58,066 nucleotides of DNA from an uncultured bacterium (GTDB taxonomy: Bacteria > Krumholzibacteriota > Krumholzibacteriia > Krumholzibacteriales > Krumholzibacteriaceae). The stretch covers positions 1-58,066 of the forward strand of contig CAYWGA010000005.1 of NCBI GenBank assembly GCA_964457905.1. Direction: 5' to 3'. Below, piece by piece: positions 6,654-35,578 of the stretch (position 1 is the first letter of the stretch; each line of letters begins with the position of its first letter). The notes below the pieces were generated by a model. The model had not been told where the DNA came from. It was given only the letters and a program-made list of their open reading frames with translations, and ran no database searches. The translations under genes were made by a program, and so were the position numbers.

Positions 6654-6735
6654 GATAATTACTTACTGTTTTTGTAAGTATAGCAGGGTTCAGCTGATTT
6701 TACTAATGCTGCACGCTCTCCCAGCGGGAATTTAC

Positions 6736-6764
6736 TTCATTATCGCCGATATTTTTTGTATAAT
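6736..6764 (+). promoter_or_regulatory. Extended -10 promoter candidate for the beta-helix gene
   Basis: TGTATAAT (TG at 6757-6758, TATAAT at 6759-6764). A weak -35 TTCATT lies 17 nt upstream. AGGAGA Shine-Dalgarno lies before the ATG at 6818. Confidence 0.4.
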
Positions 6765-6817
6765 CGCCATCGGCAATAGAGGGGTTTAAAACCAATTCAA
6801 ATCATTAGGAGACAGGC

Positions 6818-7867: not shown

Positions 7868-7924
7868 CAGCGGAGCGCCGGGCGTCCGCCTTGACTACCC
7901 TCCCCTGCGGAGTTATCTTTAAGC

Positions 7925-9724: not shown

Positions 9725-9791
9725 TCCCCGCAGACAAGATTATCCTCTGATTCTTTCTCATATCCGGAGGACCATCCTGTATAATAGGGCC

Positions 9792-11216: not shown

Positions 11217-11293
11217 CACGCCTCCTGTAAATCGTGATTTTCTACTGGGATGTTATTATCGAGAAGGCCACCGTTTCATGAGCCCACACCAGG

Positions 11294-13507: not shown

Positions 13508-13589
13508 AGCGGGTAAATTTTATCACGCGAATATTTGATTTAATAGTAGAAACTGGCGGGGCCCGCCCTCAAAACAGAAGCGGCGTCTG

Positions 13590-14222
13590 CTACTGGCACT
13601 CGTGCTGGTAGTGCTCGCCGAGAAATGAGAAATCGCTGAGGTTGCACCAGTCGTCGTCATTGTAGTCGGTGCATGGATCGTACTCGGGATCACCGAGCCG
13701 ATGGTTATACGACTGCCCAAAATAGCTCAAATCGGAGAGGTTGACGAAGCCGTCGGCGTTGATGTCGGGGCTGACTATCACGATGTCGAGACACAGCGGC
13801 CCCGTACAGGATTCATTCAGGATCACCCCACGATAGGCCACATAGATCCCACCTTCCAAGATACAGCCGCCGGCCGCTATCTGGCCCGAGAATGTAGTCC
13901 GGCCGAGGGAGTCAGTCGGTGCATCGGCGACAAATCCCCCCGGGCAGAGGTGCATCGTCTGCGACACGTCACATGCGTCTATCCAAAAATCGGTAACCGG
14001 AATCCCTGGTACGCCTCCCTCGCAGTCTCTCCAGATAACCTCGATATAGTCACTGTTGCCACCGCAGCCGTTGCGGATGGGCTCGAAGTTTCCGCATGGG
14101 CAGACGGAGATTCGAAGGGAGCAGGTTATATATGCTTCAGGCGCGCAGGGACACATATCTCCGGCAGAACCAGCTGCAGAAAGAACCGATAACAGAACTG
14201 TCGCGATCACGAGGAGCCTCAT
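13590..14222 (-). CDS. Small secreted Cys-rich protein with C-terminal double dockerin-type Ca-binding loops (paralogue A)
   Basis: 210 aa with signal peptide and GGAGG-like SD. DINADGFVNLSDLSYF and DYNDDDWCNLSDFSF fit the D-x-N-x-D-G-x-x-N-x-x-D dockerin loop. Many Cys are conserved with paralogues B and C. It ends HYQHECQ. Confidence 0.8.
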   Translation of the reverse strand: MRLLVIATVLLSVLSAAGSAGDMCPCAPEAYITCSLRISVCPCGNFEPIRNGCGGNSDYIEVIWRDCEGGVPGIPVTDFWIDACDVSQTMHLCPGGFVADAPTDSLGRTTFSGQIAAGGCILEGGIYVAYRGVILNESCTGPLCLDIVIVSPDINADGFVNLSDLSYFGQSYNHRLGDPEYDPCTDYNDDDWCNLSDFSFLGEHYQHECQ

Positions 14223-14259
14223 GCTTCATCCTCCATTCCAGGGGCACCCTATTATTATA

Positions 14260-16650
14260 TCATCTCAACAGGATCATCTTCTTCGATATCGTCTTCTTGC
14301 CTGCGGTCAGGCGGTAGAAGTAGACGCCCGAGGCGGCAACGCTGCCGTTGAGGTCTGTTCCTTTCCATTCGGCAGTGTGTGAACCTTTATCTATGGACTC
14401 ATCTATAAGCGATGCGATACACCGGCCCGCTACATCGAAGACCTCGAGCCTCACTGCGCACCGTTCGGGCAGGTAGAAGCTGATCGTTGTCGACGGATTT
14501 AACGGGTTCGGGTGGTTCTGGTAGAGCGTCAGAGCCAGTGCAGGCATGGAGATCGGGTCCGTCTCGAAGAGCACACGACTGCCGTCTTCATCTATGACCT
14601 CAACGCGGTAGATATATTCCTCGCCGGGCCGGGCATCCGTGTCGATATGCTGATAGGTTCCTTCGCTTTTTTGCTCAGTTGTGCTGGAGAGCTGCACAAA
14701 CGTGCCGCCGCCCGCTAAACTTCTGAATACCGAGAACCGCGGGTCATCCTCCTCCTGCGAGGTCGCAACACTCCATGTCAATGTTACCTTGCCCTCCCTC
14801 ACACTGCTGCTGAACGACTGCAGCTCGGTCCCGATCTCGTGCCATGGCGCGATGATAACGAAATCGCTGCAATTGAGAGAGCTGTCGACCGCGCAGAGCC
14901 TGTAGAAGAACTCATCCCCGGGGTTCCAGGCATAGTGCGTGAAATGATTCTCCAGGACCAGCTCACCAAACGGATACCCGGGAGGATCACTTACAGGTGG
15001 AAAATCTATCGTCTCGCTCCACTCAAGGACGTAAAAATAGATGTCCTCTTCAGGATGCTGGTCCCACTCGAGGTACATGGCAAGATCTACGGGATACCCC
15101 GTGAATCCAACAGGCGCGGCGGGTGGAAGATCCATCCCGGACTTGTGCCATTCGGGGCAGGTGTCATAGTTGTAAGTAGTCCCCCCGGCGGTCCGCACGG
15201 CCTGGATATAGAATACTGAAAAATCGCGGTCGCTGGTCATCGGGAATTCGCACACATACTCGAGAGAACCGTCGGCAATGACGACAGCTGCTACTTCAAA
15301 GCCTCCCGTCCATCCGGCGCTCCAGAGTATTTCATAGCTCGTCACCGGTTCGGGGATGTCCAAACGGTCCAGAAGAGAACGCGTGAACTCCGCACGGACC
15401 GTATTGCCGATCAGCTCGAAAGCGATATCTCTTGGAGGCAATACGACAAGCCGAGAATCATGGGTGTTGTTGGTCTCATTAGATTCGTCGACGTCATCAT
15501 ACGGATCGACATGCAGCCGGAATCTCCCGTAGGAACCGAACGTGTGGTTCAGGAGAGATCCGATGGCGAGATCGAACTGCACCACAGCGGTCCCGCCGGA
15601 CACAAGCCCCGCGAAGACCTGATAACCGAGATCGGTCCTCCCCAGAAAGGCTCCATGCTCGGTCAGTTCATCGTAATAAAGCTGAACGCGGGATGGCGCG
15701 GCGGGGCACACCCCGGCATTCCGGATCGTACATGAAACGATGATCGAGTCTACGCACCCCGCGATAGTATCGATATGTGCCGATTCCAGGACCATCAGGT
15801 CCGCAAAGCTCGAAGTGATCGCAAACGTCTCCAGAAAACTCCACATGTTTCCGGCCATATCGGATATTCGGAAGCCCCTGAAGATCTTGTCCGGATAGCA
15901 CCCGAAAGGCTCGGCAAATACAAGCACCACCGTCGTATCGCCAGGCAGCAGATCGGCTGACACGGGATAGATGGAATCTGCCTCGACATACCTGCTATAG
16001 ACGAGGTAATTACCGATGTCCTCTGCCGATTCAGCGGTCACTTCCTCGGTGAAGGTGACCTCGAGGGTCATTGGGTCGATAACGAGAAGTTCTTCTACCC
16101 CCGGGGGTGTGACATCGTCGGTGCAGAAATTAATGCATACGTTAGAGACAGGTTCGGCAACCTCAAACCGGCTCTCCCCGTACCCCAGGCAGTTATAGAT
16201 GTTAAATGACAGCCTGTCCCAATGTACTACAGTGCTCTCATCAGGATAGAGCTGGACCATACCCGGCTCCTCGCTTGTCAGCAGTACGGTATGGCGCAGG
16301 GCCCATACCCAGTCGGTCTGGCATTCTTCAAAATATACATCCATGCCGTTCTGCGGGGTGCCGTTTATGCCCATAACAATTGCTTCATTGTAGACCAGGT
16401 AGGCGGGAATCACGATATCAGGATACAGGATCTGAAAAGTCATCAATGTCATCCCGTTCTCTCCGGGCCTCGCCCACAGATAGACATCGATGGGGTAGTA
16501 ATCCGCGGTCCCATAGGTGCAGTGCTCGGTGTGAGTCGAGTCGACATAGAGGCCGAACTGAGGCGACTGCTGAGCCTGCGCCGGGTTCAGGGCGCACATG
16601 ACCGCGAACGCCAGAAGCGTAAGGGTCCTGCTCATCTTTTTCCCCTCCAT
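14260..16650 (-). CDS. Multi-domain Ig-like/CARDB/FN3-like surface protein with FlgD-Ig/T9SS-type CTD
   Basis: The ORF track gives 844 aa starting at 16794, but that extension overlaps the upstream gene. I prefer the start at MEGKKMSRTLTLLAFAVMCALNPAQA (16650, AGAGGTG upstream; alternative 16635). Ig-like segment DVTPPGVEELLVIDPMTLEVTFTEEV. CARDB-like VSCTIRNAGVCPAAPSRVQLYY. FN3-like PPAAPVGFTGYP...LEWDQ. CTD: HPNPLNPSTTISFYLPERCAVRLEVFDVAGR...KKMILLR. Confidence 0.8.
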   Translation of the reverse strand: MEGKKMSRTLTLLAFAVMCALNPAQAQQSPQFGLYVDSTHTEHCTYGTADYYPIDVYLWARPGENGMTLMTFQILYPDIVIPAYLVYNEAIVMGINGTPQNGMDVYFEECQTDWVWALRHTVLLTSEEPGMVQLYPDESTVVHWDRLSFNIYNCLGYGESRFEVAEPVSNVCINFCTDDVTPPGVEELLVIDPMTLEVTFTEEVTAESAEDIGNYLVYSRYVEADSIYPVSADLLPGDTTVVLVFAEPFGCYPDKIFRGFRISDMAGNMWSFLETFAITSSFADLMVLESAHIDTIAGCVDSIIVSCTIRNAGVCPAAPSRVQLYYDELTEHGAFLGRTDLGYQVFAGLVSGGTAVVQFDLAIGSLLNHTFGSYGRFRLHVDPYDDVDESNETNNTHDSRLVVLPPRDIAFELIGNTVRAEFTRSLLDRLDIPEPVTSYEILWSAGWTGGFEVAAVVIADGSLEYVCEFPMTSDRDFSVFYIQAVRTAGGTTYNYDTCPEWHKSGMDLPPAAPVGFTGYPVDLAMYLEWDQHPEEDIYFYVLEWSETIDFPPVSDPPGYPFGELVLENHFTHYAWNPGDEFFYRLCAVDSSLNCSDFVIIAPWHEIGTELQSFSSSVREGKVTLTWSVATSQEEDDPRFSVFRSLAGGGTFVQLSSTTEQKSEGTYQHIDTDARPGEEYIYRVEVIDEDGSRVLFETDPISMPALALTLYQNHPNPLNPSTTISFYLPERCAVRLEVFDVAGRCIASLIDESIDKGSHTAEWKGTDLNGSVAASGVYFYRLTAGKKTISKKMILLR
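14420..14525 (-). repeat. CTD-coding segment, inverted-repeat partner of 10953-11055
   Basis: The reverse complement reads ctctaccagaaccacccgaacccgttaaatccgtcgacaacgatcagcttctacctgcccgaacggtgcgcagtgaggctcgaggtcttcgatgta, closely matching the GH53 CTD-coding DNA. Confidence 0.6.
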
Positions 16651-16663
16651 CGGACACCTCTTC

Positions 16664-17308
16664 TCAGAAACACTCATGCTGGTAGTGCTGGCCCAAATAT
16701 GCGAAGTCACCCAGATCGCACGATCCATCATCGTTATAGTCGCAACATGTGTTGAACGCGGCGTCTCCCTCCTGCGTGTTGTACGCTTCGGCAAACATGC
16801 TCAGATCGGAGAGATTTACGAAGCCGTCGGCATTGATGTCGGGGCTGACGATCACGACATCCGCGCAGATCGGAGTCGTGCACTGAGGCCACTCAAAAAA
16901 TGTCATCCCCTGGCAGGAGATATAGATACCACCTTCCGGTATACAGCCGCCGGCCGATATCCGGGTCGAGAATGTCGTCCTGCCGTCCGAATCGGTCAAC
17001 TCGTCAGCAACAAAGTGCGACACACAGACAGACAGCTCGTGCTCGGCAAGGCAGGCATTCATCCAGTAGTCGGTCCATGGGATATTGGCGATCCCGTTTC
17101 CTGCATAGTCCCTGACAAAGACCTCGATGTAATCGTCCTCTCCTCCGCAGCCGTTCCTGATGTGTTCGAAATCCCCTTTCGGGCAGCAGGAGACCCTCAT
17201 GCCGGTACAGCTGACATTGACTTCACATCTGCAGCCGTCAAGGTGCTGTGCTGATCCTGCCACCGGGAAAATCAGTATCAGCAATAACACGATTATCAGA
17301 GCTTTCAT
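16664..17308 (-). CDS. Small secreted Cys-rich dockerin-tailed protein (paralogue B)
   Basis: 214 aa. Signal MKALIIVLLLILIFPVAGSA with AGGAGG SD. DINADGFVNLSDLSMF and DYNDDGSCDLGDFAYL loops. It shares FVADELTDSDGRTTFS..ISAGGCIPEGGIYI with paralogues A and C and ends HYQHECF. Confidence 0.8.
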   Translation of the reverse strand: MKALIIVLLLILIFPVAGSAQHLDGCRCEVNVSCTGMRVSCCPKGDFEHIRNGCGGEDDYIEVFVRDYAGNGIANIPWTDYWMNACLAEHELSVCVSHFVADELTDSDGRTTFSTRISAGGCIPEGGIYISCQGMTFFEWPQCTTPICADVVIVSPDINADGFVNLSDLSMFAEAYNTQEGDAAFNTCCDYNDDGSCDLGDFAYLGQHYQHECF

Positions 17309-17345
17309 GGTCCCTCCTTGCGCAAATATGCCTCCGTTCCATTCA

Positions 17346-17984
17346 TCAGAAACACTGGTGCTGGTAGTGCTCCCCCATGAACGAAAAGTCGCTCAGGTTG
17401 CACCATCCGTCATCGTTATAGTCGCAGCAGGTGTTGTAACCGGCGTCACCCTCCTGCTTGTTGTACGACTCGCCGAAGAAGCTCAGGTCGGAGAGGTTGA
17501 CGAAACTGTCGGCGTTGATGTCGGGGCTGACTATGACGACATCGAGACAAATCGGCTCAACCTGGGCCTCGTCAATGATCGTATAGCCCTGGCACGCGAT
17601 ATAGATGCCTCCCTCTGGGATGCATCCGCCGGCCGAGATGCGTCCGGAGAAGGTCGTGCGGCCGTTGACATCGGTCAGCGAATCAGCCACGAAGTGCTGG
17701 ACGCATATGCCGAGGGAGTATTCCACCTGGCAGGCATCCGTCCAGTAGTCGGTCCAGGGGATGCTCTCGATCCCATACCCTCCGCAGTCCCTGATATAGA
17801 CCTCGATGTAGTCGTTCCCGGTCCCGCAGCCGTCCTTGATATACTCGAAATCCCCTCTCGGACAGACCGAGACACGCATGCCGGAACAGCTGACAGCCGC
17901 CGTACTCTCGCAGGGGAACTGCCCAGACGCCGCGACCGGAAGGATCAGTATCATCAGAACCGCTGCTGCCACAATTGCTCTCAT
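17346..17984 (-). CDS. Small secreted Cys-rich dockerin-tailed protein (paralogue C)
   Basis: The ORF track starts at 18017. I prefer M12 (17984; MRAIVAAAVLMILILPVAASG) because GGAGG lies just upstream. DINADSFVNLSDLSFF and DYNDDGWCNLSDFSFM loops. It ends HYQHQCF. Confidence 0.8.
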   Translation of the reverse strand: MRAIVAAAVLMILILPVAASGQFPCESTAAVSCSGMRVSVCPRGDFEYIKDGCGTGNDYIEVYIRDCGGYGIESIPWTDYWTDACQVEYSLGICVQHFVADSLTDVNGRTTFSGRISAGGCIPEGGIYIACQGYTIIDEAQVEPICLDVVIVSPDINADSFVNLSDLSFFGESYNKQEGDAGYNTCCDYNDDGWCNLSDFSFMGEHYQHQCF

Positions 17985-18013: not shown

Positions 18014-21000
18014 TCATCGCAGCATCACCATCTTCAGCGTCCGCTCGTAGTCGCTCGCTTCCATCCTGCAGAAGTAGATCCCGCTGGCTATAGAACTGCC
18101 CCTGTCGTTCGTTCCATCCCAGACAGCTTCGTATGTTCCCGCATCGAGGATCTCGTCGACGAGGACCCGCACAAGCCTGCCGGAGACATCATATACACGC
18201 ATCGAGACGTGTCCCTTCTCCTTCAGGCTGTACTTCAGTCTCGTAACCGGGTTGAACGGATTGGGGAAGTTCTGCGAGAGAGCCGTCGCCTTTGGCAGCT
18301 CAGCATCCATCGGCACGTACCAGAGGGTATTCCCGCAAAAGTTCATAAAATTACGGAAGAATTCATTTCTCGGCAGGCCATAAGCACTGGCGTTGCGGAT
18401 ATATTGGAAGCTGTGCCCGACCCATACGGTCCGTAGCGACTGACTGGCGTTGTTCAGCTGATCGGTGCAGATGCCGGCGTAGTACGAGAGATCGTTGTGG
18501 GCAGGGTATGCAAGCGCGTACTCCCCTGGACCCGTCGTCTCGAGAACATCGAAATTGTTAATGTAGGGACATCCTCCGAAGGCAAAATATGACAGTCCGC
18601 CAAAGGGGCTGTATCCGCCAACTCCCGTGATCATAGGCGAAACGATCCCTCCCTTGTTGACGCCGCCTGTCATCTCGAGGTAGCTGCCACTCGCCAGGGT
18701 GACGCCGCAGATCGTGCTGACGAGCTCGAGCGCGACTGCAGTCTGGGAGGTGGCAAGATCGGAGGCGGCATGGTCCCCCATCATCAGCAGGCCGACTTTG
18801 TGCTCGGAAACATTCATCCAGTCGATGAGGAGCTGCGCGTCGTTGCTCTTGTCCGAATTCTCTGTGCCCTCGCTGACGGTGCACGAATTCAGGTCCCCTG
18901 AATCAAACAACACTATTTCATAGGCGATGCAGAATATCGAAGAGGCGTCGGTCACCGAAGTATATGCGCCGATTCCGTTGCTCAGGGCCGATGATGGTCC
19001 GTTGACGTCGTACCTGTCGGGGATCTCATCAGTTCCCCACAGCATGTCCCAGAAGGTATAGTCGAAATAGGTCTGCACAGTGCCGTCGAAAGTACCGCGC
19101 CCATCGTAGTCATCGACATAGAGAAGGGCGGGAACAATCCTCAGTGTCGGCAGGCAGGTGAATTCGAGCAGCCTGCTCGTTCCGAAGAACGGGCTCGGCG
19201 GCATCGACTCGGCGTTAGCCGGATATGTGCCGCTGCTTCCGGCCTGCGAGTACGCCTTAAAGTAGTACTCGATCATGTAGCCGCGTGTGAAAAGAGAGTC
19301 GTTGAGGTCGATGCAGTATGCGTTCAGAGCGATGACGCCAGCCGACGAATGGGCCGGCTCGCAGAGCAGCGCCGTCCAGTCGCCGTCGTCGCTGACGTAG
19401 CTTCCGTAGTCGCCTTCGAGCTGAGGGCCGAAGAGGTCCGGTTTCGGATAGCTGGTGTTGCCGATATATGTAACGTTGACGTGGCAGTAGACCCTCGCTT
19501 CTCCCGTCGCCAGTGTGTCGAGGCCACCGGCCATCGGCGCCGCGACCCTTACTACTGCGGAATCACCCGGATCGATCCTGGTGAACTCGTTCCCCGGAGC
19601 GACATCGACCGCCATATCGGCACGGCATATCTCCTCCATCGGATCCGTGCTGGCATACACTTCCTGGGGGAAGGTGTCCTGGAAAAGCTCTGCCCGCCTG
19701 ACATTCCAGGCCGGGCCTCCGGTGCCGAATCTCAGGATCCTCACGTCGTCATACCAAGGCGCCGGAGTGTGCTCTTCACAGTCTCCGTATGTTCCATACC
19801 ACGCACCGCACATATCGATCACGCCGAGCGCCACCTGTATCGAATCAGAGGTAACGAGAGCGCTGATATCTTCGGTTGCGGTTATCCAGGCCCTGGAGGG
19901 TTCGTATGGGACCCAGATACCTTCCGTCCTCCATTTCCCGGGGCAGCTGCCTCCAAGGTTCCTTATCCTCCAGGTCCTGAAAACGAGGTTGTTGACAGGC
20001 AGGTCGACGTATGCGTTGTATTTCAGGTAAATGCCCCCGAGAATCGAGAGATCCCCCGGCGCTATAGTCAGTTCCTGCGATCCGTCATGCATGGCGGAAT
20101 ATCGAGTGAGATCTATCGGAGGAGAGACGATCATCTCGTCCTGGCAGGGATTCTCGACACCGCCCGTACCGGTGCAGAAAGGAGTATCGTAGAGGCCGGG
20201 GTAGTCCTCGCTCGGAAAGGAAGAGCCGTTGAAGAACATGATGAGAGAACTGCTATTGAATCCGCAGGGATCCCTGCTCTCAAGGCCGGCGGCAAGGCCA
20301 CCATAAGCACCGTATGCATAATTTACGCATGCTGTCCACCAGCCGCATTCCGACTCGCCGACAGAGTAGTTCTCGAAGTCCTCGTAATCGATTATTCGTT
20401 CGTTGTCCCATATGGTGATGCTGTCGATCATGCAGGCGCCATCCGTGTCGATATAGCCGTCCTCGTCTGACCAGGCGCCATCTGACTGGAACCGGAACCT
20501 CAGCTTTGTGCCCCACTTAATTGAAAACAATTCGTGGGAGACAACGGTATCAACAACGCCACTGTATGTATCCAGGACCTCCCAGTCGCAATAGCGACAA
20601 CACCAGTAGCAGCAGGCCACATCGGTCGAATATTCGAAGGTGACCAGATCGCGGCCGCTCTCTGTATCGCAGGCGAGGCGGTACGACACGTTGATGGTGT
20701 CTCCCGGATCATGGGGGATAGCGGCCGAGAAAAACTCGTCCCAGTCATTGCCGTACCCCGGCGCTGCAGCCCAGTTGCATGTGAAAAGACTGGGGCCGGA
20801 ATTTGGACGCACCCCACACCAGACAGACTTCGTTCCTTCCAGTGGAACGAGGCGGCCCCAGGAGCCTCCGCCCAGGCCGGCAAAATCGTCAACATGAAAG
20901 AAGGTGTCAGGAGCAACGGTATTGTCGACCTGCGTCCAGCCCTGCCAGTCGGCCGTTTCAAAGTCGTACCAGACGACCCGGTAGGTGTCGGCCGCTGCTG

Positions 21001-21169
21001 CAGGCGCGAGGCTCATCATCGCCTCGTACCCTGGGATGTCGAGATCGACCTCCCCGTAGTCCGGCCTGTAGAATATCGGCCGCTGCGTTTTCTTATCCTT
21101 CGCCTCCAGGCTCGAAAAGCCCGTGAATACGAGGATTACCGCGAGAGCTGCCAGCACTGCGCGTTTCAT
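18014..21169 (-). CDS. Giant secreted paralogue GP1 (unknown function) with FlgD-Ig/T9SS-type CTD
   Basis: 1055-aa ORF from 21181. The second ATG (21169, MKRAVLAALAVILVF) follows GGAGGGGGAG. Modules shared with GP2-GP6 include VVWYDFE..DWQGWT, FFHVDDFAGLGGG, LEGTKSVWCG, HTPAPWYDNV, RIDPGDSAVVRVAAP..GGLDTL, YCIDLNDSLFTRGYMIEYYFKAY, LLYVDDYDGRGTFDG and SDKSNDAQLLIDWMN. CTD: NFPNPFNPVTRLKYSLKEKGHVSMRVYDVSGRLVRVLVDE...KMVMLR. Confidence 0.85.
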   Translation of the reverse strand: MKRAVLAALAVILVFTGFSSLEAKDKKTQRPIFYRPDYGEVDLDIPGYEAMMSLAPAAAADTYRVVWYDFETADWQGWTQVDNTVAPDTFFHVDDFAGLGGGSWGRLVPLEGTKSVWCGVRPNSGPSLFTCNWAAAPGYGNDWDEFFSAAIPHDPGDTINVSYRLACDTESGRDLVTFEYSTDVACCYWCCRYCDWEVLDTYSGVVDTVVSHELFSIKWGTKLRFRFQSDGAWSDEDGYIDTDGACMIDSITIWDNERIIDYEDFENYSVGESECGWWTACVNYAYGAYGGLAAGLESRDPCGFNSSSLIMFFNGSSFPSEDYPGLYDTPFCTGTGGVENPCQDEMIVSPPIDLTRYSAMHDGSQELTIAPGDLSILGGIYLKYNAYVDLPVNNLVFRTWRIRNLGGSCPGKWRTEGIWVPYEPSRAWITATEDISALVTSDSIQVALGVIDMCGAWYGTYGDCEEHTPAPWYDDVRILRFGTGGPAWNVRRAELFQDTFPQEVYASTDPMEEICRADMAVDVAPGNEFTRIDPGDSAVVRVAAPMAGGLDTLATGEARVYCHVNVTYIGNTSYPKPDLFGPQLEGDYGSYVSDDGDWTALLCEPAHSSAGVIALNAYCIDLNDSLFTRGYMIEYYFKAYSQAGSSGTYPANAESMPPSPFFGTSRLLEFTCLPTLRIVPALLYVDDYDGRGTFDGTVQTYFDYTFWDMLWGTDEIPDRYDVNGPSSALSNGIGAYTSVTDASSIFCIAYEIVLFDSGDLNSCTVSEGTENSDKSNDAQLLIDWMNVSEHKVGLLMMGDHAASDLATSQTAVALELVSTICGVTLASGSYLEMTGGVNKGGIVSPMITGVGGYSPFGGLSYFAFGGCPYINNFDVLETTGPGEYALAYPAHNDLSYYAGICTDQLNNASQSLRTVWVGHSFQYIRNASAYGLPRNEFFRNFMNFCGNTLWYVPMDAELPKATALSQNFPNPFNPVTRLKYSLKEKGHVSMRVYDVSGRLVRVLVDEILDAGTYEAVWDGTNDRGSSIASGIYFCRMEASDYERTLKMVMLR

Positions 21170-21197
21170 CTCCCCCTCCATTTCCTTTTGTCGGTCG
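21071..21197 (-). repeat. Near-identical copy of the 5' leader plus signal-peptide coding DNA (partner 24241-24367)
   Basis: By eye, about five mismatches in ~127 nt against 24241-24367. The segment spans the SD, both ATGs and the codons for MEGEMKRAVLAALAVILVF.GFSSLEAKDKKTQRPIF. Confidence 0.85.
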
Positions 21198-21231
21198 GCT
21201 TGTCCTGTTTCTTTCTATATTCGTATCGTCT

Positions 21232-24200
21232 TTATCTCAACATCACCATCTTCAATGTTCTCTCGTAGTCAGTCGCCTCCATGCGGCAGAAGTAGATCCC
21301 GCTGGCAGTCGCGCGGCCCTCGTTGTTCGTGCCGTCCCAGACCGCCTCGTACAACCCGGCCTCGCGGACCTCGTCGACGAGCACGCGGACCAGCCTGCCG
21401 GAAACATCATAGACACGCAGTTTGACGTGCCCCTTCTCCTTCAGCGCGAACTTCACCCTCGTGACTGGATTGAACGGGTTGGGGAAGTTGTCCGAGAGGC
21501 TGGTCGCCTTAGGCGTTTCTGTATCGCACCTGTCCTGACTGACGCCGTTTTCAAAAAACACCAATACATTATGGAAGAAGCTGTACCTTGCCGGGGAATG
21601 GTAATTATCGGTGTTTCGGATGTACTGGAGGCTGTGCCCGACCCAGACGGTCCTGAGGTCCTGGCTGGCGTTGTTAAGCTGGTCTGTTGAGATGCCTGCA
21701 TAATACTGGAGACCGTCAAAGTCAGGATATGAAAGCGCGTACTGCCCAGGGCCGGTCGTCTCCAGGACATCGAAGTCATTGACATAGGGACATCCACCAG
21801 CCACGAAATACGACAGATTATCGAACGGGCCACCCGTAACTCCCGTTAGCAGAGGCGACGCGACACCACCACCGCTGAAACCACCCGTCATCTCGAAGTA
21901 GCTGCCTGTCGACAGGGTGACCCCTGAGATCGTTCTGACCAGTTCGAGAGCGACGGCCGTCTCGGAGCCGGCAAGGTCGGAGGCGATCTCGTCCCCCATC
22001 ACGAGCAGGCCGACCTTGTGCTCAGATACGTTCATCCAGTCGATGAGGAGCTGTGCATCGTTGCTCTTGTCCGAATAATCCCTTCCCTCGCTGATTGTGC
22101 AGCTGTTCAGGTTCCCCGAGTCGAATATGACATTTTCGTATGCCGTACAGAAGATCGACGAAGCATCGGTCACCGAGGTATATGCGCCAATGCCATTGCT
22201 CAGCGCCGAGGAAGGGGCATTGACGTCATACCTGTCGGGTATGTCATTAATCGTAGGAATGTTACACTCGTACGACCAATCCCAATAGAGCTGCGCGACT
22301 CCATTGAAGGTACCCCGTCCATCGAAATCGTCGACGTACAGTATGCTGGGAACCGTCCGCAATGTCGGCAGGCATGTGAATTCGAGAAGATTGCTCGTCC
22401 AGGAATGGTAAGGAAGCGGCATCGTTTCGGCATTAGCCGGGTATGTAGTGCTGTTTCCATCAAGGTCGTAAGCTTTAAAATAGTATTCGATCATGTACCC
22501 GCGTGTGAACAGGGAGTCATTCAGATCGATGCAGTACGTGTTCGACACGTCATACCCTTCGGGATATTGGGCCTGATCGCACAAAAGCACCGTCCAGTCA
22601 CCGTCATCGCTTTCATACCTGCCGTAGCTTCCCTCCAGCTGGGGCCCGAAGAGATCGGGCTTGCCGTCCAGACCTAGAAAAGTGACGTTTACGTGGCAGT
22701 AGACCTTCTCCTCTCCCGTAACAAGCGTATCGAGTCCCCCGGAGGAAGGAGCAGCCACCCTGATCACGGCCGAATCACCCGGATCTATGCGATCGTAATC
22801 GTCGTACGCAGCAATATCCATCGCCATATCCGCCCGGCAGAATTCCTCCATCGGGTTGGAGCTTGCCTCTACTTCCTGCGGAAATGTGTCCTGAAATAGT
22901 TTGCCACGGTCGGCATGCCACTGAGGGCCGACGGTCGAATGCCTGTAAAGACGGACGTTGTCGAACCAGGGCGACGGTGTGTGGCTGGAGCAATCGTATA
23001 TAAACCATGGATAACAAAGGTCGATAACTGAAAGGATTACCTGCAGCGAGTCCCCCTGGACGAAGTCCGAGATAGAGACATCCGTTTCGATATATTCTGC
23101 TTCATCGCCATAGTACAGGACTCCCCGATCCTCCCACTGCCCCGGGCAGCCGTTCACGATGTTCCGTGTCTTCCACATGTAGAAGACACCATTGAAGTTG
23201 GGAAGATCTCGATATACTGAGAACCTCAGGCGATAACCACCGAGCCCTGACAGTTCCCCGGATGGAATCTCCTGGTCTTGCGTTTTGTCGCAATTGCCGC
23301 TGTATCGATTCAGATCAATGATGGGTGAGGAAACAGATTCGTTCTGACAATACCCCTCTTCAACGTCACAAAGCGGCGTTACCGGAAGGCCGGGGTAATC
23401 CGTGCTCATCCAGGTAGAACCTTCAAAGAAGACTATCTGGGAGGATAAATTCCAGTTGCAGGGGTCCCGGTCTGACAGATTTGTCGCAATACCCGAAAAC
23501 ATTCCATATCCGTCTGTGCCGGGACGGCAGTGCCAGAAATCAGTGTCATGGTCGCCGGCATCCGCATCCTCAAAATCCTCGAAGTCTATCAGGCCGTTCT
23601 CGTCGGAAACGGTGATACTGTCGATAATACATGCTCCATCGGTATCAAGGCGGCCGTCCGAGTCGGAGACCGCATGGTCCGAATGGAAATGGAAGCGCAG
23701 TTTTGTCGCGGCCGCGGTGCTGATCATTGCATGTGTTGCCACCGTATCAAGTCGACCGCTAATAGAGGCGACCCACTCCCACTGTCCCCCGGAAAAATAC
23801 TCGACATATACATTATCACGGTCCGGCTCCGAGTCGAATACGCCATGATATGTAAGTGTCAGCTGCCCGGTGAATGTAAACGGCTCAGATATCAGATCCT
23901 GGTCCCATCTGTTTCCATAGCCGGGAGGCGAGGCCCACGAGCAGACATAGAAATCATCTCCCGGTCTCACTCCGCACCAGACAGACTTGGTTCCCTCTAT
24001 CGGAACAAGGCGGCCAAAATCGCCGCCTCCAAGACCGGCAAAATCGTCTATGTGGAAAAAAGTGTCGGGCTGTGCTGTGTTGTCGCTTCTCGTCCACCCC
24101 TGCCAGTCCATATGATCGAAGTCATACCAGACCACGCAATAGGTATCGACGGCTGCGACAGCCGCTGCCGGTGCGAGGTCCATCATCGACCCGCCGCACT

Positions 24201-24339
24201 CCGGGGGATCGATATATGTTTCCTCGTAATTCGGCCTGGAGAATATCGGCCTCTGTGTTTTCTTATCCTTCGCCTCGAGGCTCGAAAAGCCCGCGAATAC
24301 GAGGATCACCGCGAGAGCTGCCAGCACTGCGCGTTTCAT
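21232..24339 (-). CDS. Giant secreted paralogue GP2 with FlgD-Ig/T9SS-type CTD
   Basis: 1039-aa ORF from 24351, preferred start 24339 as for GP1. Same module order. The N-terminal module is very close to GP3 (VDTYCVVWYDFDHMDWQGWT ... GRLVPIEGTKSVWCGVRPGDDFYVCSW). Confidence 0.85.
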   Translation of the reverse strand: MKRAVLAALAVILVFAGFSSLEAKDKKTQRPIFSRPNYEETYIDPPECGGSMMDLAPAAAVAAVDTYCVVWYDFDHMDWQGWTRSDNTAQPDTFFHIDDFAGLGGGDFGRLVPIEGTKSVWCGVRPGDDFYVCSWASPPGYGNRWDQDLISEPFTFTGQLTLTYHGVFDSEPDRDNVYVEYFSGGQWEWVASISGRLDTVATHAMISTAAATKLRFHFHSDHAVSDSDGRLDTDGACIIDSITVSDENGLIDFEDFEDADAGDHDTDFWHCRPGTDGYGMFSGIATNLSDRDPCNWNLSSQIVFFEGSTWMSTDYPGLPVTPLCDVEEGYCQNESVSSPIIDLNRYSGNCDKTQDQEIPSGELSGLGGYRLRFSVYRDLPNFNGVFYMWKTRNIVNGCPGQWEDRGVLYYGDEAEYIETDVSISDFVQGDSLQVILSVIDLCYPWFIYDCSSHTPSPWFDNVRLYRHSTVGPQWHADRGKLFQDTFPQEVEASSNPMEEFCRADMAMDIAAYDDYDRIDPGDSAVIRVAAPSSGGLDTLVTGEEKVYCHVNVTFLGLDGKPDLFGPQLEGSYGRYESDDGDWTVLLCDQAQYPEGYDVSNTYCIDLNDSLFTRGYMIEYYFKAYDLDGNSTTYPANAETMPLPYHSWTSNLLEFTCLPTLRTVPSILYVDDFDGRGTFNGVAQLYWDWSYECNIPTINDIPDRYDVNAPSSALSNGIGAYTSVTDASSIFCTAYENVIFDSGNLNSCTISEGRDYSDKSNDAQLLIDWMNVSEHKVGLLVMGDEIASDLAGSETAVALELVRTISGVTLSTGSYFEMTGGFSGGGVASPLLTGVTGGPFDNLSYFVAGGCPYVNDFDVLETTGPGQYALSYPDFDGLQYYAGISTDQLNNASQDLRTVWVGHSLQYIRNTDNYHSPARYSFFHNVLVFFENGVSQDRCDTETPKATSLSDNFPNPFNPVTRVKFALKEKGHVKLRVYDVSGRLVRVLVDEVREAGLYEAVWDGTNNEGRATASGIYFCRMEATDYERTLKMVMLR
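21284..21490 (-). repeat. CTD-coding DNA nearly identical to 24484-24690
   Basis: A perfectly identical run cggcagaagtagatcccgctggcagtcgcgcggccctcgttgttcgtgccgtcccagaccgcctcgtac is followed by further near-identical sequence. By eye, about ten mismatches over ~205 nt. Confidence 0.85.
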
Positions 24340-24367
24340 CTCCCCCTCCATTTCCTTTTGTCGGTCG
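24241..24367 (-). repeat. Leader plus signal-peptide repeat, partner of 21071-21197
   Basis: See 21071-21197. The two genes diverge strongly just downstream of this block. Confidence 0.85.
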
Positions 24368-24431
24368 TCTTGCCTGGTTCCTTTCTCAAATATTCACCCT
24401 GCCAGCCGGTATGCCGGCGGGTTCCGGCAAT

Positions 24432-26195
24432 CTATCTCAGCAGGACCATCTTGAGGGTCCGTTCGTAATCATTCGCCTCCATCCGGCAGAAGTAGATCCC
24501 GCTGGCAGTCGCGCGGCCCTCGTTGTTCGTGCCGTCCCAGACCGCCTCGTACGACCCGGCCTCGCGGACCTCGTCGACGAGCACGCGGACCAGCCTGCCG
24601 GAGATATCATAGACACGCAGCCTGACGTGCCCCTTCTCCTTCAGTGCGAATTTCACCCTCGTTACGGGATTGAACGGGTTGGGGAAATTCTGCAGCAGTC
24701 CCATCGCCGCCGGCGGCGTGCGGTCGTCCGTAGGAGGCAAGTACCCGCTCCCGTTTACACGCTGCGCATAGATCCCATTACTGGTCCCATCGAATGCGTA
24801 ATTATTGTACCAGGTGAAGATCGCTCCCCCTGTGCCGTCCGGAAGTATCCTTTGTCCCCGGGGATAGTACTCATCGGGGAAATCGCAGAGGGTCAGGCCG
24901 CCTTCCTGCCACAGAACCTCTCCATTACCGGTTACGCGTTGAGCGTAAACAGATTCGATATCAATCCCGAACGCAAGAGGTCCGGAGGCACTGTAAGAGT
25001 AAGGCGCCGGCCATCCGGTCGGCCACGCGACTATCGCTCCACCGAAACCGTCCGGCGCTATCTCCGGGGGCATGTTATCCCAATAGATTCCGCTCTCTCT
25101 TATCGATATCCCGCCGGCAGGCCAAAGCGAATCTCCCCCGGCCGAGAGATGCTGGACATAGATAGCCATCCTGTGCGTAACGGCGTCTCTCGTGTCGCAC
25201 CAGGCATAGAACGCACCGCCCGCACCATCGGGCGCAACGCTCGCCCATAGCTGAATATTCTGCTCAGTGCACACCGGAATGCCGTCGACCGGCCATACAG
25301 GGAGACCGTCTGGATCGATACGCTGGGAATAGATGTCTCGATCTGGATATTCAAGCAGATTTTCCCAAACACACGTCACGCCTCCTGCTCCGTCCGCCAC
25401 AGCATCGTGATCGTTCTGATCCCCGGCGGCATCGCATACCGGCACTCCACCCGATGACCATAGAAGGGTGCTGTCAGCAGCGATTCTCTGGGCGTAGATG
25501 TCGATTTCACCGCCGCGCAGGTCGGCCCAGACCGCAATCGCGCCGCCAGTTTCATCAGTTACCGCTATAGCCTCTTCCTGGTCTCCCGTTTCGGTACATA
25601 CGTCGATCCCGTCGGCAGGCCAGAGAAGAGCCCCTGTCGTATCGATACACTGAGCGAATATATCCTTGTCGCCGTTCCTGTCATCGTGCCATACGATGAT
25701 AGCTTCACCATCACAATCCACAACGCTTATCCGGGGGTAGAACCAGTGGGAGGTGTTCGCTTCAGTGCAGACAGCGATGCCGTTCGCGGCCCAGAGCGGA
25801 TTGCCCCCGGGGCTTATGCGCTGAGCGTAGATGTGGGATATGCCGGTCCTGAAGTCCGCCCAGACGATGATCGCCCCGTTTGCGCCGTCAGAGACTACCT
25901 GTGGCCGGAGTTGTCCTGAAGGAGCGGTACACACAGGAACGCCTCCCGCAGCCCAGAGAGGAATCCCGTCGCTGCCGAGCCTCTGAGCGTAGATGTCCGG
26001 ACTGTCAGTCAGGTTATAGTATGTCTGCCAGACGATTATCGATCCGCCCGCCCCGTCCGATATGATCTCGGGGTTATACTCATCGCCAGTGACCGTCGCC
26101 ACCGGAACACCGTTTTCCTGCCACTGGGCCTGAGCGCCGCAGAACGGGATCACGAGAAACAGGATCGTCCATAGAGAGATTTGTCTCATCAACAC
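24432..26195 (-). CDS. Secreted 8-repeat (propeller-like) protein with FlgD-Ig/T9SS-type CTD, inserted inside the giant-paralogue array
   Basis: 587 aa, apparently GTG-initiated, with signal peptide ...FCGAQA|QW. Eight ~50-aa repeats fit G.P(L/V)W...G(I/V).VC.......v.(S/P)DG.GGAI(I/V)VW.D.R....DIYAQR(I/V). The CTD is almost identical to that of GP2 and GP3. Confidence 0.85.
   Translation of the reverse strand: MLMRQISLWTILFLVIPFCGAQAQWQENGVPVATVTGDEYNPEIISDGAGGSIIVWQTYYNLTDSPDIYAQRLGSDGIPLWAAGGVPVCTAPSGQLRPQVVSDGANGAIIVWADFRTGISHIYAQRISPGGNPLWAANGIAVCTEANTSHWFYPRISVVDCDGEAIIVWHDDRNGDKDIFAQCIDTTGALLWPADGIDVCTETGDQEEAIAVTDETGGAIAVWADLRGGEIDIYAQRIAADSTLLWSSGGVPVCDAAGDQNDHDAVADGAGGVTCVWENLLEYPDRDIYSQRIDPDGLPVWPVDGIPVCTEQNIQLWASVAPDGAGGAFYAWCDTRDAVTHRMAIYVQHLSAGGDSLWPAGGISIRESGIYWDNMPPEIAPDGFGGAIVAWPTGWPAPYSYSASGPLAFGIDIESVYAQRVTGNGEVLWQEGGLTLCDFPDEYYPRGQRILPDGTGGAIFTWYNNYAFDGTSNGIYAQRVNGSGYLPPTDDRTPPAAMGLLQNFPNPFNPVTRVKFALKEKGHVRLRVYDISGRLVRVLVDEVREAGSYEAVWDGTNNEGRATASGIYFCRMEANDYERTLKMVLLR
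24484..24690 (-). repeat. CTD-coding repeat, partner of 21284-21490
   Basis: Same sequence as in GP2, although the upstream passenger domains are unrelated. Confidence 0.85.
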
Positions 26196-26207
26196 ATACT
26201 CTTTCTG

Positions 26208-29200
26208 CTATCTCAGCATAACCATCTTCAATGTTCTCTCGTAGTCGGCCGCCTCCATCCGGCAGAAGTAGATCCCGCTCGCCGTGGCGCGGCCCTCGTT
26301 ATTTGTGCCGTCCCAGACCGCCTCGTATGAGCCGGCCTCACGGATCTCATCGACGAGCACGCGAACCAGCCGGCCGGAGACATCGTAGACACGCAGCTTG
26401 ACGCGTCCCTTCTCCTTCAGCGCGAACTTCACCCTCGTTACCGGATTGAACGGGTTGGGGAAGTTGTCCGAAAGGCTCGTCACCTTCGGGATCTCTGTGC
26501 CGGTAATATCACCGCTGCCACCCGTCATAAACAGATTGTAAACCTGTCTGAGAAACATGTTTCGTGCGGGGATTCCGTCTCCCGCGTTGCGGAACGCCAT
26601 AAGGCTGTGCCCGACCCACATGGTCTTGATTATCTGTCCGGCGTCGTTCAGCTGATCCGTGAAGATGCCGGCGTAATATTCGGTGCTGTTGTAATCGGGA
26701 TACTGCAGCGCGTACTGCCCGGGGCCATTAGCTTCAAGTACGTCGAACTCGCTGATAAGCGGACAGCCTCCGTCCGCGTAATATGTAAGACCATCGAAGG
26801 GTCCCCCGGCGACACCTGTGATGAGAGGGATCACCATTCCTCCATCGGAATCGCCGCCTGTCAGATCATAATAACTGTAGTGTTCAAGCGTCACGCCACA
26901 AAGCGTGCTCATAAATTCCGCGGCTATCGCGGAAGCTGACAATGAGAGATCATACGCCACCCGGTCACCCATGACGAGAAGCCCCGCGTAGTGCTCGCTG
27001 TTCCTCATCCAGTCCACGAAGAGCTTCGCATCGTTCGACTTGTCTGAGTTCTCGGTCCCTTCAGTTATCGTCAAAGAATACAGGTCGCCGGAATCGTGTA
27101 TCACAGTAAAGTAAGCCGTGCAGAAAATAGACGACGCGTCCGTGGCCGAGACATAGGCCCCTATCCCGTTGCTTACCCCGGAAGTCGGCCCGTTTGTGTC
27201 ATACCTGTCAGGCAGAGATACACCGGCAGGGTTCACAGCCTTGAGCGTGGGATCCATGTACGTCTGAACGAGGCCGTCGAATGTCCCCCTGTTGTGAAAG
27301 TCGTCGCAATACAGCACCCCAGGGACCTCTCTCAGGGTCGGCAGACAGGTGAACTCGTAGTGGTCACCGGCAGGCTCTTCCGCGTTGTGCGGATATGTCG
27401 TGGCGACGCCGTCCATGCCGTACGCCTTGAAGTAGTACTCGACCATGTAACCGCGGGTAAAGAGCGAGTCGTTCAGGTCGATAGCGTATTTGTCAGGAGC
27501 GATGTTGCCGGCCGAGGTCTCCGCGGGGTCACAGAGGAAGATATCCCATCCGCCGCCATCTGTGCTCAGCCAGGTACCGTATGTCCCCTCGAGCTGGGGG
27601 CCGGTCAGATCGGGTTTTCCGTCAGGTCCGAGAAAATGGACATTGCAGTGGAAATGGACCATTGCCTCGCCGGTCGGAAGAGTGTCAAGCTCGCCGCCGT
27701 ACCAGCCACCGACCGTTACAACCGCGGAATCGCCGGGATCGATCGTGGAGAACTCGTCGCCCGGAGAGATATCATTGGCCATATCGGCACGGCAAAAGCT
27801 CTCCATCTCGCCGTCATCCTGCGGGAAGGTATCCTGGAAAAGGTCGAGATTGCGGACGCTCCACTGAGGGCCGGCCGTCGAGTACCTGTATACACGCACA
27901 TTGTCGAAATACGGTGCCGGTGTATGCTCCGCGCAATCTCCGTACGTGCCGTACCAGTCGTCGCACAAATCGAATACAGTGAGTCTGCATTGCATCTGGT
28001 CAGAGGAGATCAGGTCGGAGACATCATGGCTCATCTGTATGTACTCCCTGTCGCCCCCGTAGTACACCGACGTACGCTTCCGCCATTGCGTCGGGCAGCC
28101 GTCGACCATATTCATGACGGCCCAGTTGTAGAAGACGAGATTGGACAGAGGCAGATCGCGGTAGACCGTAAACCTGTACAACACGCCGCCGAGTTCCGGA
28201 AGCTTGCCCGCGGGGATATCCAGGTCCTGCACCTCGTCGCAGCTCCCGCTGTATCTTGTCATGTCGATTACCGGCGATACGACCGTTATATCCTGGCACG
28301 GCGGCAGATAATAGCTACCTCCGGCGCAGAATGGAGTTACGGGCATACCCGGATAGTCGTCGCTCATCCAGGGAGAGCCGAGAAAGAAGACTATCTGGCT
28401 CCTCATGTTAGACCCGCAGGGATCCTTGTCCTGCAGGTTGGCAGCGAGGCCTGTGTAGGTTCCGAATGGGTCGACGCCGGTGCGGCAGTGCCAGAAATCG
28501 GTGTCGTGGCCACCGACCGCAGCCGATTCGAAATCTTCGAAATCGATCAAGCCGTTGATGTCAGCGACCGTGATGCTGTCGATGATGCAGGCCCCGTCGG
28601 TATCGAAAAGTCCGTCATGATCGGACCACGATCCGTCAGAGATAAAATGGAACCGCAGCTTGGTCGCTGCGAGTGGCAGCGGAAGCATGTGAATCGCAAC
28701 CGTGTCCAGCGCGCCGTCGACCGACATTATCTCGGTCCAGTCTTCGCCAGCACAATACTCGACATATGTTTTGTCCCAATCATCCTCCGAATCGAACACT
28801 CCGTGATATGAGAAGGTCAGCAGGCCAGTAAACGAGAACGAATCGGTCGTCAGGACCTGGTCCCAGCTGTTCCCGTAGCCGGGTGCGCTCTGCCAGGTAC
28901 ACATGTAGAAATCGTCGCCGGGCCGCACTCCGCACCAGGCCGACTTCGTTCCTTCTATAGGCAGGAGCCTTCCGAAATCGCCACCCCCGAGACCTGCGAA
29001 ATCGTCGACATGGAAGAAGGTGTCGATCTGAGCCGTTTCATCTATTATGGACCAGCCCTGCAAGTCCATATGCTCGAAGTCGTACCAGACAATGCAGTAC
29101 GTATCGACCGCGGCGGCGGCCGGCGCCATACCCATCGATTCAAGAAGGGCCTCCCCCTCCGCCCTGAGTTCATCGGGGACACTCACGACCGGACGCAGAC

Positions 29201-29300
29201 CCTTGGTATCTTCTTCTTTGGGACGTGCCTGGACGGCATCAGGCACAAACACTGTCGCGACGAGAATCACCGCAAGCGCGATGAACAGCGAGGATTTCAT
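26208..29300 (-). CDS. Giant secreted paralogue GP3 with FlgD-Ig/T9SS-type CTD
   Basis: 1030 aa. Signal MKSSLFIALAVILVATVFVPDAVQA with AAGGAGAG SD. Same module order. CTD: NFPNPFNPVTRVKFALKEKGRVKLRVYDVSGRLVRVLVDEIREAG...KMVMLR. Confidence 0.85.
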   Translation of the reverse strand: MKSSLFIALAVILVATVFVPDAVQARPKEEDTKGLRPVVSVPDELRAEGEALLESMGMAPAAAAVDTYCIVWYDFEHMDLQGWSIIDETAQIDTFFHVDDFAGLGGGDFGRLLPIEGTKSAWCGVRPGDDFYMCTWQSAPGYGNSWDQVLTTDSFSFTGLLTFSYHGVFDSEDDWDKTYVEYCAGEDWTEIMSVDGALDTVAIHMLPLPLAATKLRFHFISDGSWSDHDGLFDTDGACIIDSITVADINGLIDFEDFESAAVGGHDTDFWHCRTGVDPFGTYTGLAANLQDKDPCGSNMRSQIVFFLGSPWMSDDYPGMPVTPFCAGGSYYLPPCQDITVVSPVIDMTRYSGSCDEVQDLDIPAGKLPELGGVLYRFTVYRDLPLSNLVFYNWAVMNMVDGCPTQWRKRTSVYYGGDREYIQMSHDVSDLISSDQMQCRLTVFDLCDDWYGTYGDCAEHTPAPYFDNVRVYRYSTAGPQWSVRNLDLFQDTFPQDDGEMESFCRADMANDISPGDEFSTIDPGDSAVVTVGGWYGGELDTLPTGEAMVHFHCNVHFLGPDGKPDLTGPQLEGTYGTWLSTDGGGWDIFLCDPAETSAGNIAPDKYAIDLNDSLFTRGYMVEYYFKAYGMDGVATTYPHNAEEPAGDHYEFTCLPTLREVPGVLYCDDFHNRGTFDGLVQTYMDPTLKAVNPAGVSLPDRYDTNGPTSGVSNGIGAYVSATDASSIFCTAYFTVIHDSGDLYSLTITEGTENSDKSNDAKLFVDWMRNSEHYAGLLVMGDRVAYDLSLSASAIAAEFMSTLCGVTLEHYSYYDLTGGDSDGGMVIPLITGVAGGPFDGLTYYADGGCPLISEFDVLEANGPGQYALQYPDYNSTEYYAGIFTDQLNDAGQIIKTMWVGHSLMAFRNAGDGIPARNMFLRQVYNLFMTGGSGDITGTEIPKVTSLSDNFPNPFNPVTRVKFALKEKGRVKLRVYDVSGRLVRVLVDEIREAGSYEAVWDGTNNEGRATASGIYFCRMEAADYERTLKMVMLR

Positions 29301-29315
29301 CCTTCTCTCCTTACA

Positions 29316-32408: not shown

Positions 32409-32476
32409 CGGACTCTCCTTTCCCCTCGGTCTATGTGACCGGGTTGAGGGTATCTCCCGTTCAGCCCATTTCATAT

Positions 32477-35560: not shown

Positions 35561-35578
35561 CGGACTCTCCTTCCTTAT

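Follow-up and report, generated by a model that had tools for sequence, protein, structure and literature searches.

A dockerin and cohesin-fold gene set beside an array of giant surface proteins in an uncultured Krumholzibacteriota bacterium

A 58,066-nucleotide stretch of DNA (hereafter the window) from an uncultured Krumholzibacteriota bacterium of marine sediment encodes, on its minus strand from 17984 to 13590, three small secreted paralogues that end in a dockerin (DocC, DocB and DocA) together with a putative surface-anchoring protein that carries a predicted cohesin-fold module, and we consider it fairly probable that these four genes form a minimal non-cellulosomal cohesin-dockerin set, in which the dockerin tails would bind cohesin-fold modules. 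The domain identities, both folds, the directional adjacency of the two kinds of gene across the phylum and the tight packing of the genes were established computationally. A dockerin consists of two tandem F-hand repeats of ~22 residues, each a 12-residue Ca loop (D or N at positions 1, 3, 5 and 9, D at position 12) followed by a helix. An earlier note, made from the letters of the DNA, had proposed a non-cellulosomal cohesin/dockerin-like surface assembly as a hypothesis; this proposal is supported by the identity of the dockerins, by the cohesin-fold module and by the linkage of Doc and cohesin-fold genes in 22 of 31 loci, from which we infer binding.

Dockerin tails and Ig-like heads of the Doc proteins

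The earlier description of three small secreted paralogues held in full: a check of the open reading frames places all of them on the minus strand (Table 1), with lengths of 210-214 aa. Their N-termini are typical Sec signal peptides (MKALIIVLLLILIFPVAGSA/Q and similar), past which each protein carries 14-16 Cys, in agreement with the more than ten that had been counted. DocB is 65% identical to DocC and 54-55% identical to DocA, DocA and DocC share 59% identity, and 109 columns of the alignment are invariant among the three. The motifs that had been quoted are all present and all invariant in DocA, DocB and DocC, namely CP.G.FE.I..GCG...DYIEV..RD and FVAD..TD..GRTTFS..I.AGGC..EGGIY in the head, and PDINAD(G/S)FVNLSDLS.F, DYNDD..C.L.DF and the terminal HYQH.C in the tail. 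About 104 full-length homologues with the same architecture of ~214 aa were found in public data, the named ones being Candidatus Krumholzibacteriota, hence the pattern is far beyond chance.

The tails of DocA, DocB and DocC are dockerins by loop pattern, by family profile and, for DocB, by modelled fold. The two dockerin-type loops that had been noticed are canonical Ca loops: those of DocB (DINADGFVNLSD and DYNDDGSCDLGD) and their equivalents in DocA and DocC have the 12-residue ligand spacing D-x-N-x-D-x(6)-D, and in both loops the residues D1, D5 and D12 vary little or not at all among 34 family members. In the AlphaFold2 model computed for DocB from the alignment of these 34 sequences (mean pLDDT 88.9, pTM 0.79), the loops are followed by helices at residues 166-175 and 199-207, and the dockerin part superposes in Foldseek on the solved dockerin 2y3n_B with a TM-score of 0.81 and an rmsd of 1.1 Å over 57 columns. 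The Doc family profile likewise finds this solved dockerin (E 6.8e-7), along with several X-module-dockerin (XDoc) chains (E 7e-5 to 9e-3). The check by the Pfam profile Dockerin_1 (PF00404) came out divided, as DocB passes the gathering threshold of 22.9 with 25.2 bits, whereas DocC (17.1 bits) and DocA (14.5 bits) stay below it; family-wide, 14 of the 34 aligned members match this profile at E<=0.01 and none matches any other family. The NCBIfam model dockerin_GC gives a weak score on DocB (20.1 bits against a cut-off of 29).

At the other end of the model, the signal peptide of DocB appears as a helix at residues 2-18, with a low-confidence stretch at 15-20, and the N-terminal ~130 residues are predicted to form an Ig-like sandwich of the invasin/FdeC/filamin kind by Foldseek comparison. 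The best whole-chain PDB matches of DocB are type II XDoc dyads (4wi0_B, 4u3s_B, 2b59_B, 5g5d_B and chains of 4fl4). Since the geometry between the domains fails to superpose (rmsd 13-14 Å, TMq ~0.3) and sequence homology to X-modules is absent, this likeness is architectural, and homology of the heads is not demonstrated. Judged by the model, the Doc proteins are thus free-standing dyads of an Ig-like head and a dockerin.

Two further features are particular to the family. A CC pair just before the second Ca loop and the C-terminal H-Y-Q-H-x-C are invariant or nearly so family-wide and absent from canonical dockerins; a disulfide staple or a metal site is a possible role for these residues. 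Another Krumholzibacteriia metagenome-assembled genome (MAG) has this dockerin subtype (…SYNK..GD..YN.CCDFN.D…SDFAFFGEHYQH) within a C1-peptidase/beta-helix/CTD protein, CTD standing for the C-terminal sorting domain of the type IX secretion system (T9SS), and the subtype therefore behaves as a portable module. In the locus concerned (L042, 3169-6909, plus strand) a papain-type C1 peptidase and a beta-helix are joined in one 1247-aa protein with an internal CC...HYQH dockerin and a T9SS-type tail, so that enzyme cargo with this dockerin exists in the phylum.

A predicted cohesin-fold module in the putative anchoring protein

As the earlier note had it, the Doc genes flank the gene of a CTD protein, which was found to be a protein of 791 or 796 aa, depending on the start codon, that consists of a signal peptide, the cohesin-fold module, a beta-rich, otherwise unassigned middle with one CARDB domain and a T9SS-type C-terminal sorting domain, in this order. 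The sorting domain is recognised by PF18962 (Por_Secre_tail; 29.1 bits, cut-off 27) and TIGR04183 (37.3 bits, cut-off 23). In one Krumholzibacteriota MAG (L003), genes for small secreted proteins adjoin that of a Doc homologue, and these proteins gave the clue to the module, as they align to the N-terminus of the anchoring protein with 29% identity over 124 residues (E 3e-16). An iterative search of the window and 43 fetched loci then returned a single match in the window, residues ~26-185 of the anchoring protein, and dozens in the loci.

Sequence models are silent on this family. Pfam Cohesin (PF00963) has no match at E<=1 in the window protein or in 36 members of the module family, these 36 have no match to any Pfam family, the module profile finds only chance-level matches among PDB sequences, and NCBIfam has nothing for the cohesin-fold proteins. 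By structure, the picture is a different one: the AlphaFold2 model of the module (pLDDT 87.2, pTM 0.83) has cohesins as seven of its best eight PDB matches in Foldseek (E 2e-5 to 6e-5, probability 1.00), and the larger part of the top 50 consists of cohesins, whether of type I, II or III or non-cellulosomal (E 2e-5 to 2e-3, TMt 0.5-0.68). Among them are CaCohA2 (6kgc_A; E 2.4e-5, TMt 0.68), OlpC (4dh2), ScaC (5lxv), the archaeal non-cellulosomal 2xdh, 1anu, the autonomous cohesin 4n2o and type III ScaE (2zf9), all with a probability of 1.00; by these matches the model is superposable on solved cohesins, whose fold is a nine-stranded beta jelly-roll. The cohesin search across the locus that had been suggested thus gave no match by PF00963, while the modelled N-terminus of the anchoring protein has the fold, and the model supports a cohesin-type candidate partner encoded within the locus that is invisible to sequence models.

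The family is large. A search with the module profile in 1.84 billion representatives matches at least 1104 proteins at E<=1e-3. Some of these, 1000-2500 aa long, contain the module two or three times, together with several Big_5 repeats and a tail of the T9SS type, which is a scaffoldin-like build; in seven long relatives, Pfam Cohesin finds nothing at E<=0.01. The window itself has one copy.

Doc loci across the Krumholzibacteriota

A scan of one genome per species yielded 39 Doc loci, nearly all of them in Krumholzibacteriota MAGs (L-numbers label the fetched loci), and 31 were informative, extending 1.2 kb or more past the Doc gene or genes on the downstream side. In 22 of the 31, one to six tandem cohesin-fold genes follow directly on the same strand, and in none do they lie upstream; the gaps range from a slight overlap to ~800 bp, and the adjacency persists across Doc identities down to ~45%. 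In the window the cohesin-fold gene lies between DocB and DocA, and in the window and its closest relative, L005, the module is instead fused into a long CARDB/CTD protein. In about 19 loci the cohesin-fold array is followed by the gene of a Peptidase_C25 + FlgD_ig protein of ~1300 aa (for example L003, 12947-16948), which is PorU-like, with 176.6 bits to NF033707, under the cut-off of 420. SpoIID and GH3 genes come after the C25 peptidase gene in 13-14 loci.

In the stand-alone module proteins, a signal peptide precedes the module, and the extreme C-terminus is formed by a tag, TEE[SA]SWGAIK[SG][LM][FY], which the cohesin-fold protein of the window lacks. The tag that ends 60 stand-alone cohesin-fold open reading frames in related loci is also found in the window, at the end (...GTEERSWGSIKKMHER) of a 349-aa right-handed beta-helix protein (Pfam Beta_helix; 6818-7867, plus strand). 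Neither Pfam nor NCBIfam covers the tag, and a literature search for the WGAIK tag gave nothing relevant; it may serve for sorting or attachment as a signal particular to the lineage.

In a midpoint-rooted tree of the Doc proteins, the cohesin-linked context looks ancestral. The Doc genes of L005, L006 and L013 share one clade (support 100/96) with the three paralogues of the window, each of which has its own orthologue in that clade. The triplication is therefore old, and a recent duplication of the Doc genes is ruled out. A derived clade (14 rows, support 98/96; L001 10001-12097, also L015, L020, L024, L025, L026, L035 and L038) has one to three tandem Doc copies followed by genes for an extracytoplasmic function (ECF) sigma factor and a zinc-ribbon anti-sigma factor, not by cohesin-fold genes, and its members carry a five-residue insertion in the first Ca loop (D-L-T-G-A-S-G-K-P-D-G). 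One 1521-bp contig labelled Desulfuromonadales (L017) encodes a Doc protein identical to that of L018, with a cohesin-fold gene downstream, and the label is probably a binning error.

A probable plug-and-socket surface assembly and its alternatives

True dockerins, together with a predicted cohesin-shaped module on a putative surface-anchored protein, make it most likely that the locus encodes a non-cellulosomal plug-and-socket surface assembly. DocC, DocB and DocA would be exported by Sec as adaptors resembling XDoc proteins, and their dockerin tails would plug, in a Ca-dependent manner, into the cohesin-fold module of the 791-aa protein and probably also into stand-alone cohesin-fold proteins that another part of the genome would encode, at the Doc-cohesin-PorU-like locus canonical for the phylum. 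The 791-aa protein would be exported and fixed to the outer membrane by means of its T9SS-type tail and a T9SS-like pathway, and, because the Doc tails would dock on this anchored protein, the Cys-rich Ig-like heads would be displayed beside the six giant proteins (giants) encoded in the same gene string, where they would presumably meet a ligand. For the passage of the Doc proteins across the outer membrane, a piggyback ride on a CTD-bearing partner is one possibility. Doc and anchor genes may be transcribed together.

Several points weigh against this assembly. The binding of Doc proteins to the module is itself something that we infer, and the cohesin call comes from a predicted structure with moderate TM-scores (0.5-0.68) at ~10% identity and a silent Pfam Cohesin. 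Other beta-sandwiches (integrin alpha-V, BcpA pilin, the CLIPPER domain) also stand in the Foldseek list of the module, and on account of these and of the moderate TM-scores it is named a cohesin-fold module here, not a proven member of the cohesin family. On the side of the plugs, DocC and DocA, two of the three paralogues, score under the Pfam dockerin cut-off, three dockerins face one local socket, and the Doc proteins, with their Sec signal, have no CTD to take them to the surface. Furthermore, nine of the 31 informative loci are without a cohesin-fold gene, and in L006 and L013 the orthologous Doc genes follow the giants with no cohesin-fold gene within 10 kb, from which it follows that the local socket is not the sole partner. 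The MAGs of L006 and L013 also contain a canonical Doc-cohesin-PorU-like locus (L011 and L010, respectively).

The gene order of L006 and L013 bears on an alternative that we regard as unlikely, namely that the dockerin tails bind modules within the giants, the small proteins serving as adaptors or caps that decorate or cross-link them. The giants are six paralogues of 1027-1055 aa, 51-63% identical to the first, all with a C-terminal FlgD_ig/Por_Secre_tail, and a 587-aa protein with the same sorting tail sits among them; the Doc genes lie directly downstream of these huge surface proteins and run in the same direction, as the earlier note had stated. The order recurs in the three closest genomes (L005, L006 and L013), with Doc directly downstream and giants that are 57-66% identical, so that, with the window, all four genomes of the subclade have kept it; the Doc clade of the window unites exactly the giants-linked loci, and in L006 and L013 the neighbourhood of the Doc genes offers no other candidate partner. 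Sequence comparison speaks against it, however: profile-profile comparison gives the giants a probability of 0.4% with the cohesin-fold family and of 2% with the Doc family, and Pfam and PDB profile searches find only the CTD/FlgD region in them, apart from weak chance-level matches. Pfam Cohesin matches none of the six giants, the 587-aa protein, the CARDB protein, GH53, the beta-propeller, the beta-helix or the kinase. Outside the subclade, no giants lie near genes of the Doc family. Of the partners that the earlier note had put forward, the anchoring protein has a cohesin-fold module, whereas the giants show no profile-level similarity and keep their link by gene order; this shared order keeps some link between giants and Doc proteins alive.

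The nine loci without a cohesin-fold neighbour would also fit a quite improbable reading, in which the dockerin-like tail is a Ca-stabilised structural or EF-hand-like module without a cohesin partner and the cohesin-fold genes are co-located for other reasons, for example as substrates or accessories of the PorU-like peptidase pathway. Many non-cellulosomal dockerin-like modules reportedly lack a known partner, the derived clade is linked to ECF sigma and anti-sigma factors and has an insertion in Ca loop 1, and the conserved CC...HYQHxC residues are foreign to canonical dockerins. However, a same-strand, directional adjacency of dockerin and cohesin-fold genes is hard to explain without an interaction, and the two folds are the two halves of a known binding pair. 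Very improbable, finally, is that the small proteins are subunits of a fibre or pilus-like polymer with the cohesin-fold proteins, dependent on the C25 (PorU-like) peptidase in the manner of gingipain-processed type V pili. Such a polymer would agree with the phylum-wide occurrence, beside the C25 peptidase, of small secreted beta-sandwich proteins that are encoded in tandem and end in a conserved tag at the extreme C-terminus, yet it is drawn purely by analogy: lipoprotein signals are absent, the Foldseek lists of DocB and of the module contain no FimA/Mfa pilin fold, and the module of the window lacks the tag and is fused to a CTD protein.

A cellulosome is ruled out for the locus, because no enzyme of the window carries a dockerin: the three Doc proteins hold the only dockerins in its 58 kb, and the GH53 enzyme (9792-11216) has a CTD and no dockerin. 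A cellulosome would have glycoside hydrolases or other enzymes assembled by their dockerins on a scaffoldin with several cohesins, and the window has one cohesin-fold module.

Returning to the plug-and-socket assembly, a wider version of it can be put forward tentatively, as a doubtful extension. The Krumholzibacteriota, and perhaps neighbouring candidate phyla of the FCB group, would possess a surface-assembly system not yet described, with the cohesin-fold module as its socket, in which adaptors lock on in the periplasm and ride their CTD partner through a T9SS-like translocon, and the PorU-like peptidase fixes the complex. Here this system would have been recruited to the giants array, with three anciently diverged Doc heads for one type of socket.

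Gene string and surrounding region

The features of the locus are collected in Table 1. The Doc genes and the anchoring gene are separated by gaps of 13-37 nt, and each of the four starts has a GGAGG-type Shine-Dalgarno sequence. The anchoring gene has two in-frame ATGs (16650 and 16635), five codons (15 nt) apart with GGAGGGG in between; the second (MSRTLTLLAF..., 791 aa) is likelier, since GGAGGGG lies at Shine-Dalgarno distance from it. Around the 3' end of DocA, the regional count of hairpin-type matches is at chance level. As to expression data, only DNA runs from marine sediment contain the window.

Table 1. Positions of the Doc genes, the anchoring gene and adjoining features in the window
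Feature	Position	Strand	Remarks
DocC: signal peptide, Cys-rich Ig-like sandwich, dockerin	17346..17984	-	212 aa; GGAGG 5' of start ATG 17984
DocC dockerin module, residues ~149-212	17349..17540	-	Ca loops DINADSFVNLSD and DYNDDGWCNLSD
DocB: signal peptide, Cys-rich Ig-like sandwich, dockerin	16664..17308	-	214 aa; protein modelled
DocB dockerin module, residues ~151-214	16667..16858	-	Pfam Dockerin_1 25.2 bits, above gathering score
Putative anchoring protein	14260..16650	-	796 aa from ATG 16650; 791 aa from ATG 16635 likelier
Cohesin-fold module ('P domain'), residues ~26-195 of the 796-aa form	16066..16575	-	AlphaFold2 model resembles solved cohesins; no Pfam/PDB sequence match
CARDB domain of anchoring protein, residues 283-397	15460..15804	-	Pfam
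T9SS type A C-terminal sorting domain (Por_Secre_tail / FlgD_ig) of anchoring protein	14272..14511	-	Pfam, NCBIfam
DocA: signal peptide, Cys-rich Ig-like sandwich, dockerin	13590..14222	-	210 aa; final gene of unit
DocA dockerin module, residues ~147-210	13593..13784	-	
Terminator-like GC hairpin GGCGGGCCCCGCC	13555..13567	-	23 nt past DocA stop codon; consensus match only
Six paralogous CTD giants and one 587-aa CTD protein	18014..38671	-	Directly upstream of DocC, same direction

In L006 (10643-12182) and L013 (10547-12847), the Doc gene almost abuts a homologue of the acyltransferase gene that lies at 4771-5892 in the window. Between these neighbours the window has ~7.6 kb extra (~5940-13590), with a Ser/Thr kinase-TPR gene, the GH53-CTD gene, a beta-propeller gene, the tagged beta-helix gene and a 237-aa open reading frame; together with DocB, the cohesin-bearing protein and DocA, which the window has in addition to L006 and L013, this marks a variable region.

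Significance and comparison with known systems

Cohesin-dockerin pairs are classic high-affinity protein "snap fasteners" that are widely used in synthetic biology, and to our knowledge they come almost entirely from Gram-positive cellulosomes. The family described here is a large predicted cohesin-fold family that escapes the current sequence models of Pfam and NCBIfam, is paired across a candidate phylum with a highly conserved free-standing Ig-dockerin protein and, in this genome, has its socket fused to a T9SS-type surface anchor beside the giants array. If the binding is true, it offers a testable model of modular cell-surface construction in uncultured diderm sediment bacteria and a new orthogonal cohesin-dockerin pair, and it raises the question by what route partners that lack a sorting domain get through the outer membrane. 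A literature search returned no paper that joins the Krumholzibacteriota with dockerins or with type IX secretion.

Among the closest known systems are the clostridial type II XDoc dyads and their anchoring cohesins (C. thermocellum CipA XDoc with SdbA or ScaC, A. cellulolyticus ScaA with ScaB; 2b59, 4wi0, 4u3s, 5g5d, 4fl4), in which an Ig-like sandwich, predicted in our case, directly precedes a two-repeat Ca dockerin and the partner, a candidate in our case, is a cohesin-fold module on a surface-anchored protein. In contrast to these dyads, which form the C-terminus of a scaffoldin, the Doc dyad is a free-standing mature protein of 190 aa, its predicted head is Cys-rich and shares neither sequence homology with X-modules nor their placement relative to the dockerin, anchoring would go, in a diderm, through a T9SS-type CTD and not through an SLH domain or sortase, and dockerin-bearing enzymes are absent from the window. 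In Ruminococcus flavefaciens (ScaE type III cohesin, CttA XDoc and autonomous cohesin; 2zf9, 4n2o), an anchoring protein with a single cohesin also takes XDoc-type adaptors and stand-alone cohesins exist, whereas that system is Gram-positive, sortase-attached and cellulosomal and has no sequence similarity to the locus.

With the non-cellulosomal cohesin and dockerin modules (Peer et al., 2009), such as those of Archaeoglobus fulgidus (2xdh) and C. perfringens (cohesin-like, 2jh2), which are both among the fold matches of the module, the locus shares the presence of both modules in an organism without any sign of a cellulosome. Those modules are recognisable by Pfam or by sequence, whereas the cohesin-fold family is not, despite at least 1104 representative clusters. 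For the cloacimonadotal 'Ca. Stygibacter', a CTD-anchored scaffoldin-like protein with cohesins and dockerin-tagged enzymes have been inferred (Williams et al., 2021; PMC8542988), and this case resembles ours in the FCB-related candidate phylum, in the cohesin on a T9SS-type CTD protein and in the dockerins on Sec-exported partners. There, however, the cohesins are arranged in tandem and recognisable by InterPro and the dockerins sit on enzymes (GH18, GH57, S8, C25), whereas the Krumholzibacteriota locus has a single cryptic cohesin-fold module and small, non-enzymatic dockerin carriers. The system is hence set apart from the known cases by a cohesin family that is invisible to sequence models, by its small, conserved and free-standing Ig-dockerin carrier and by the tie of one subclade to the giants array.

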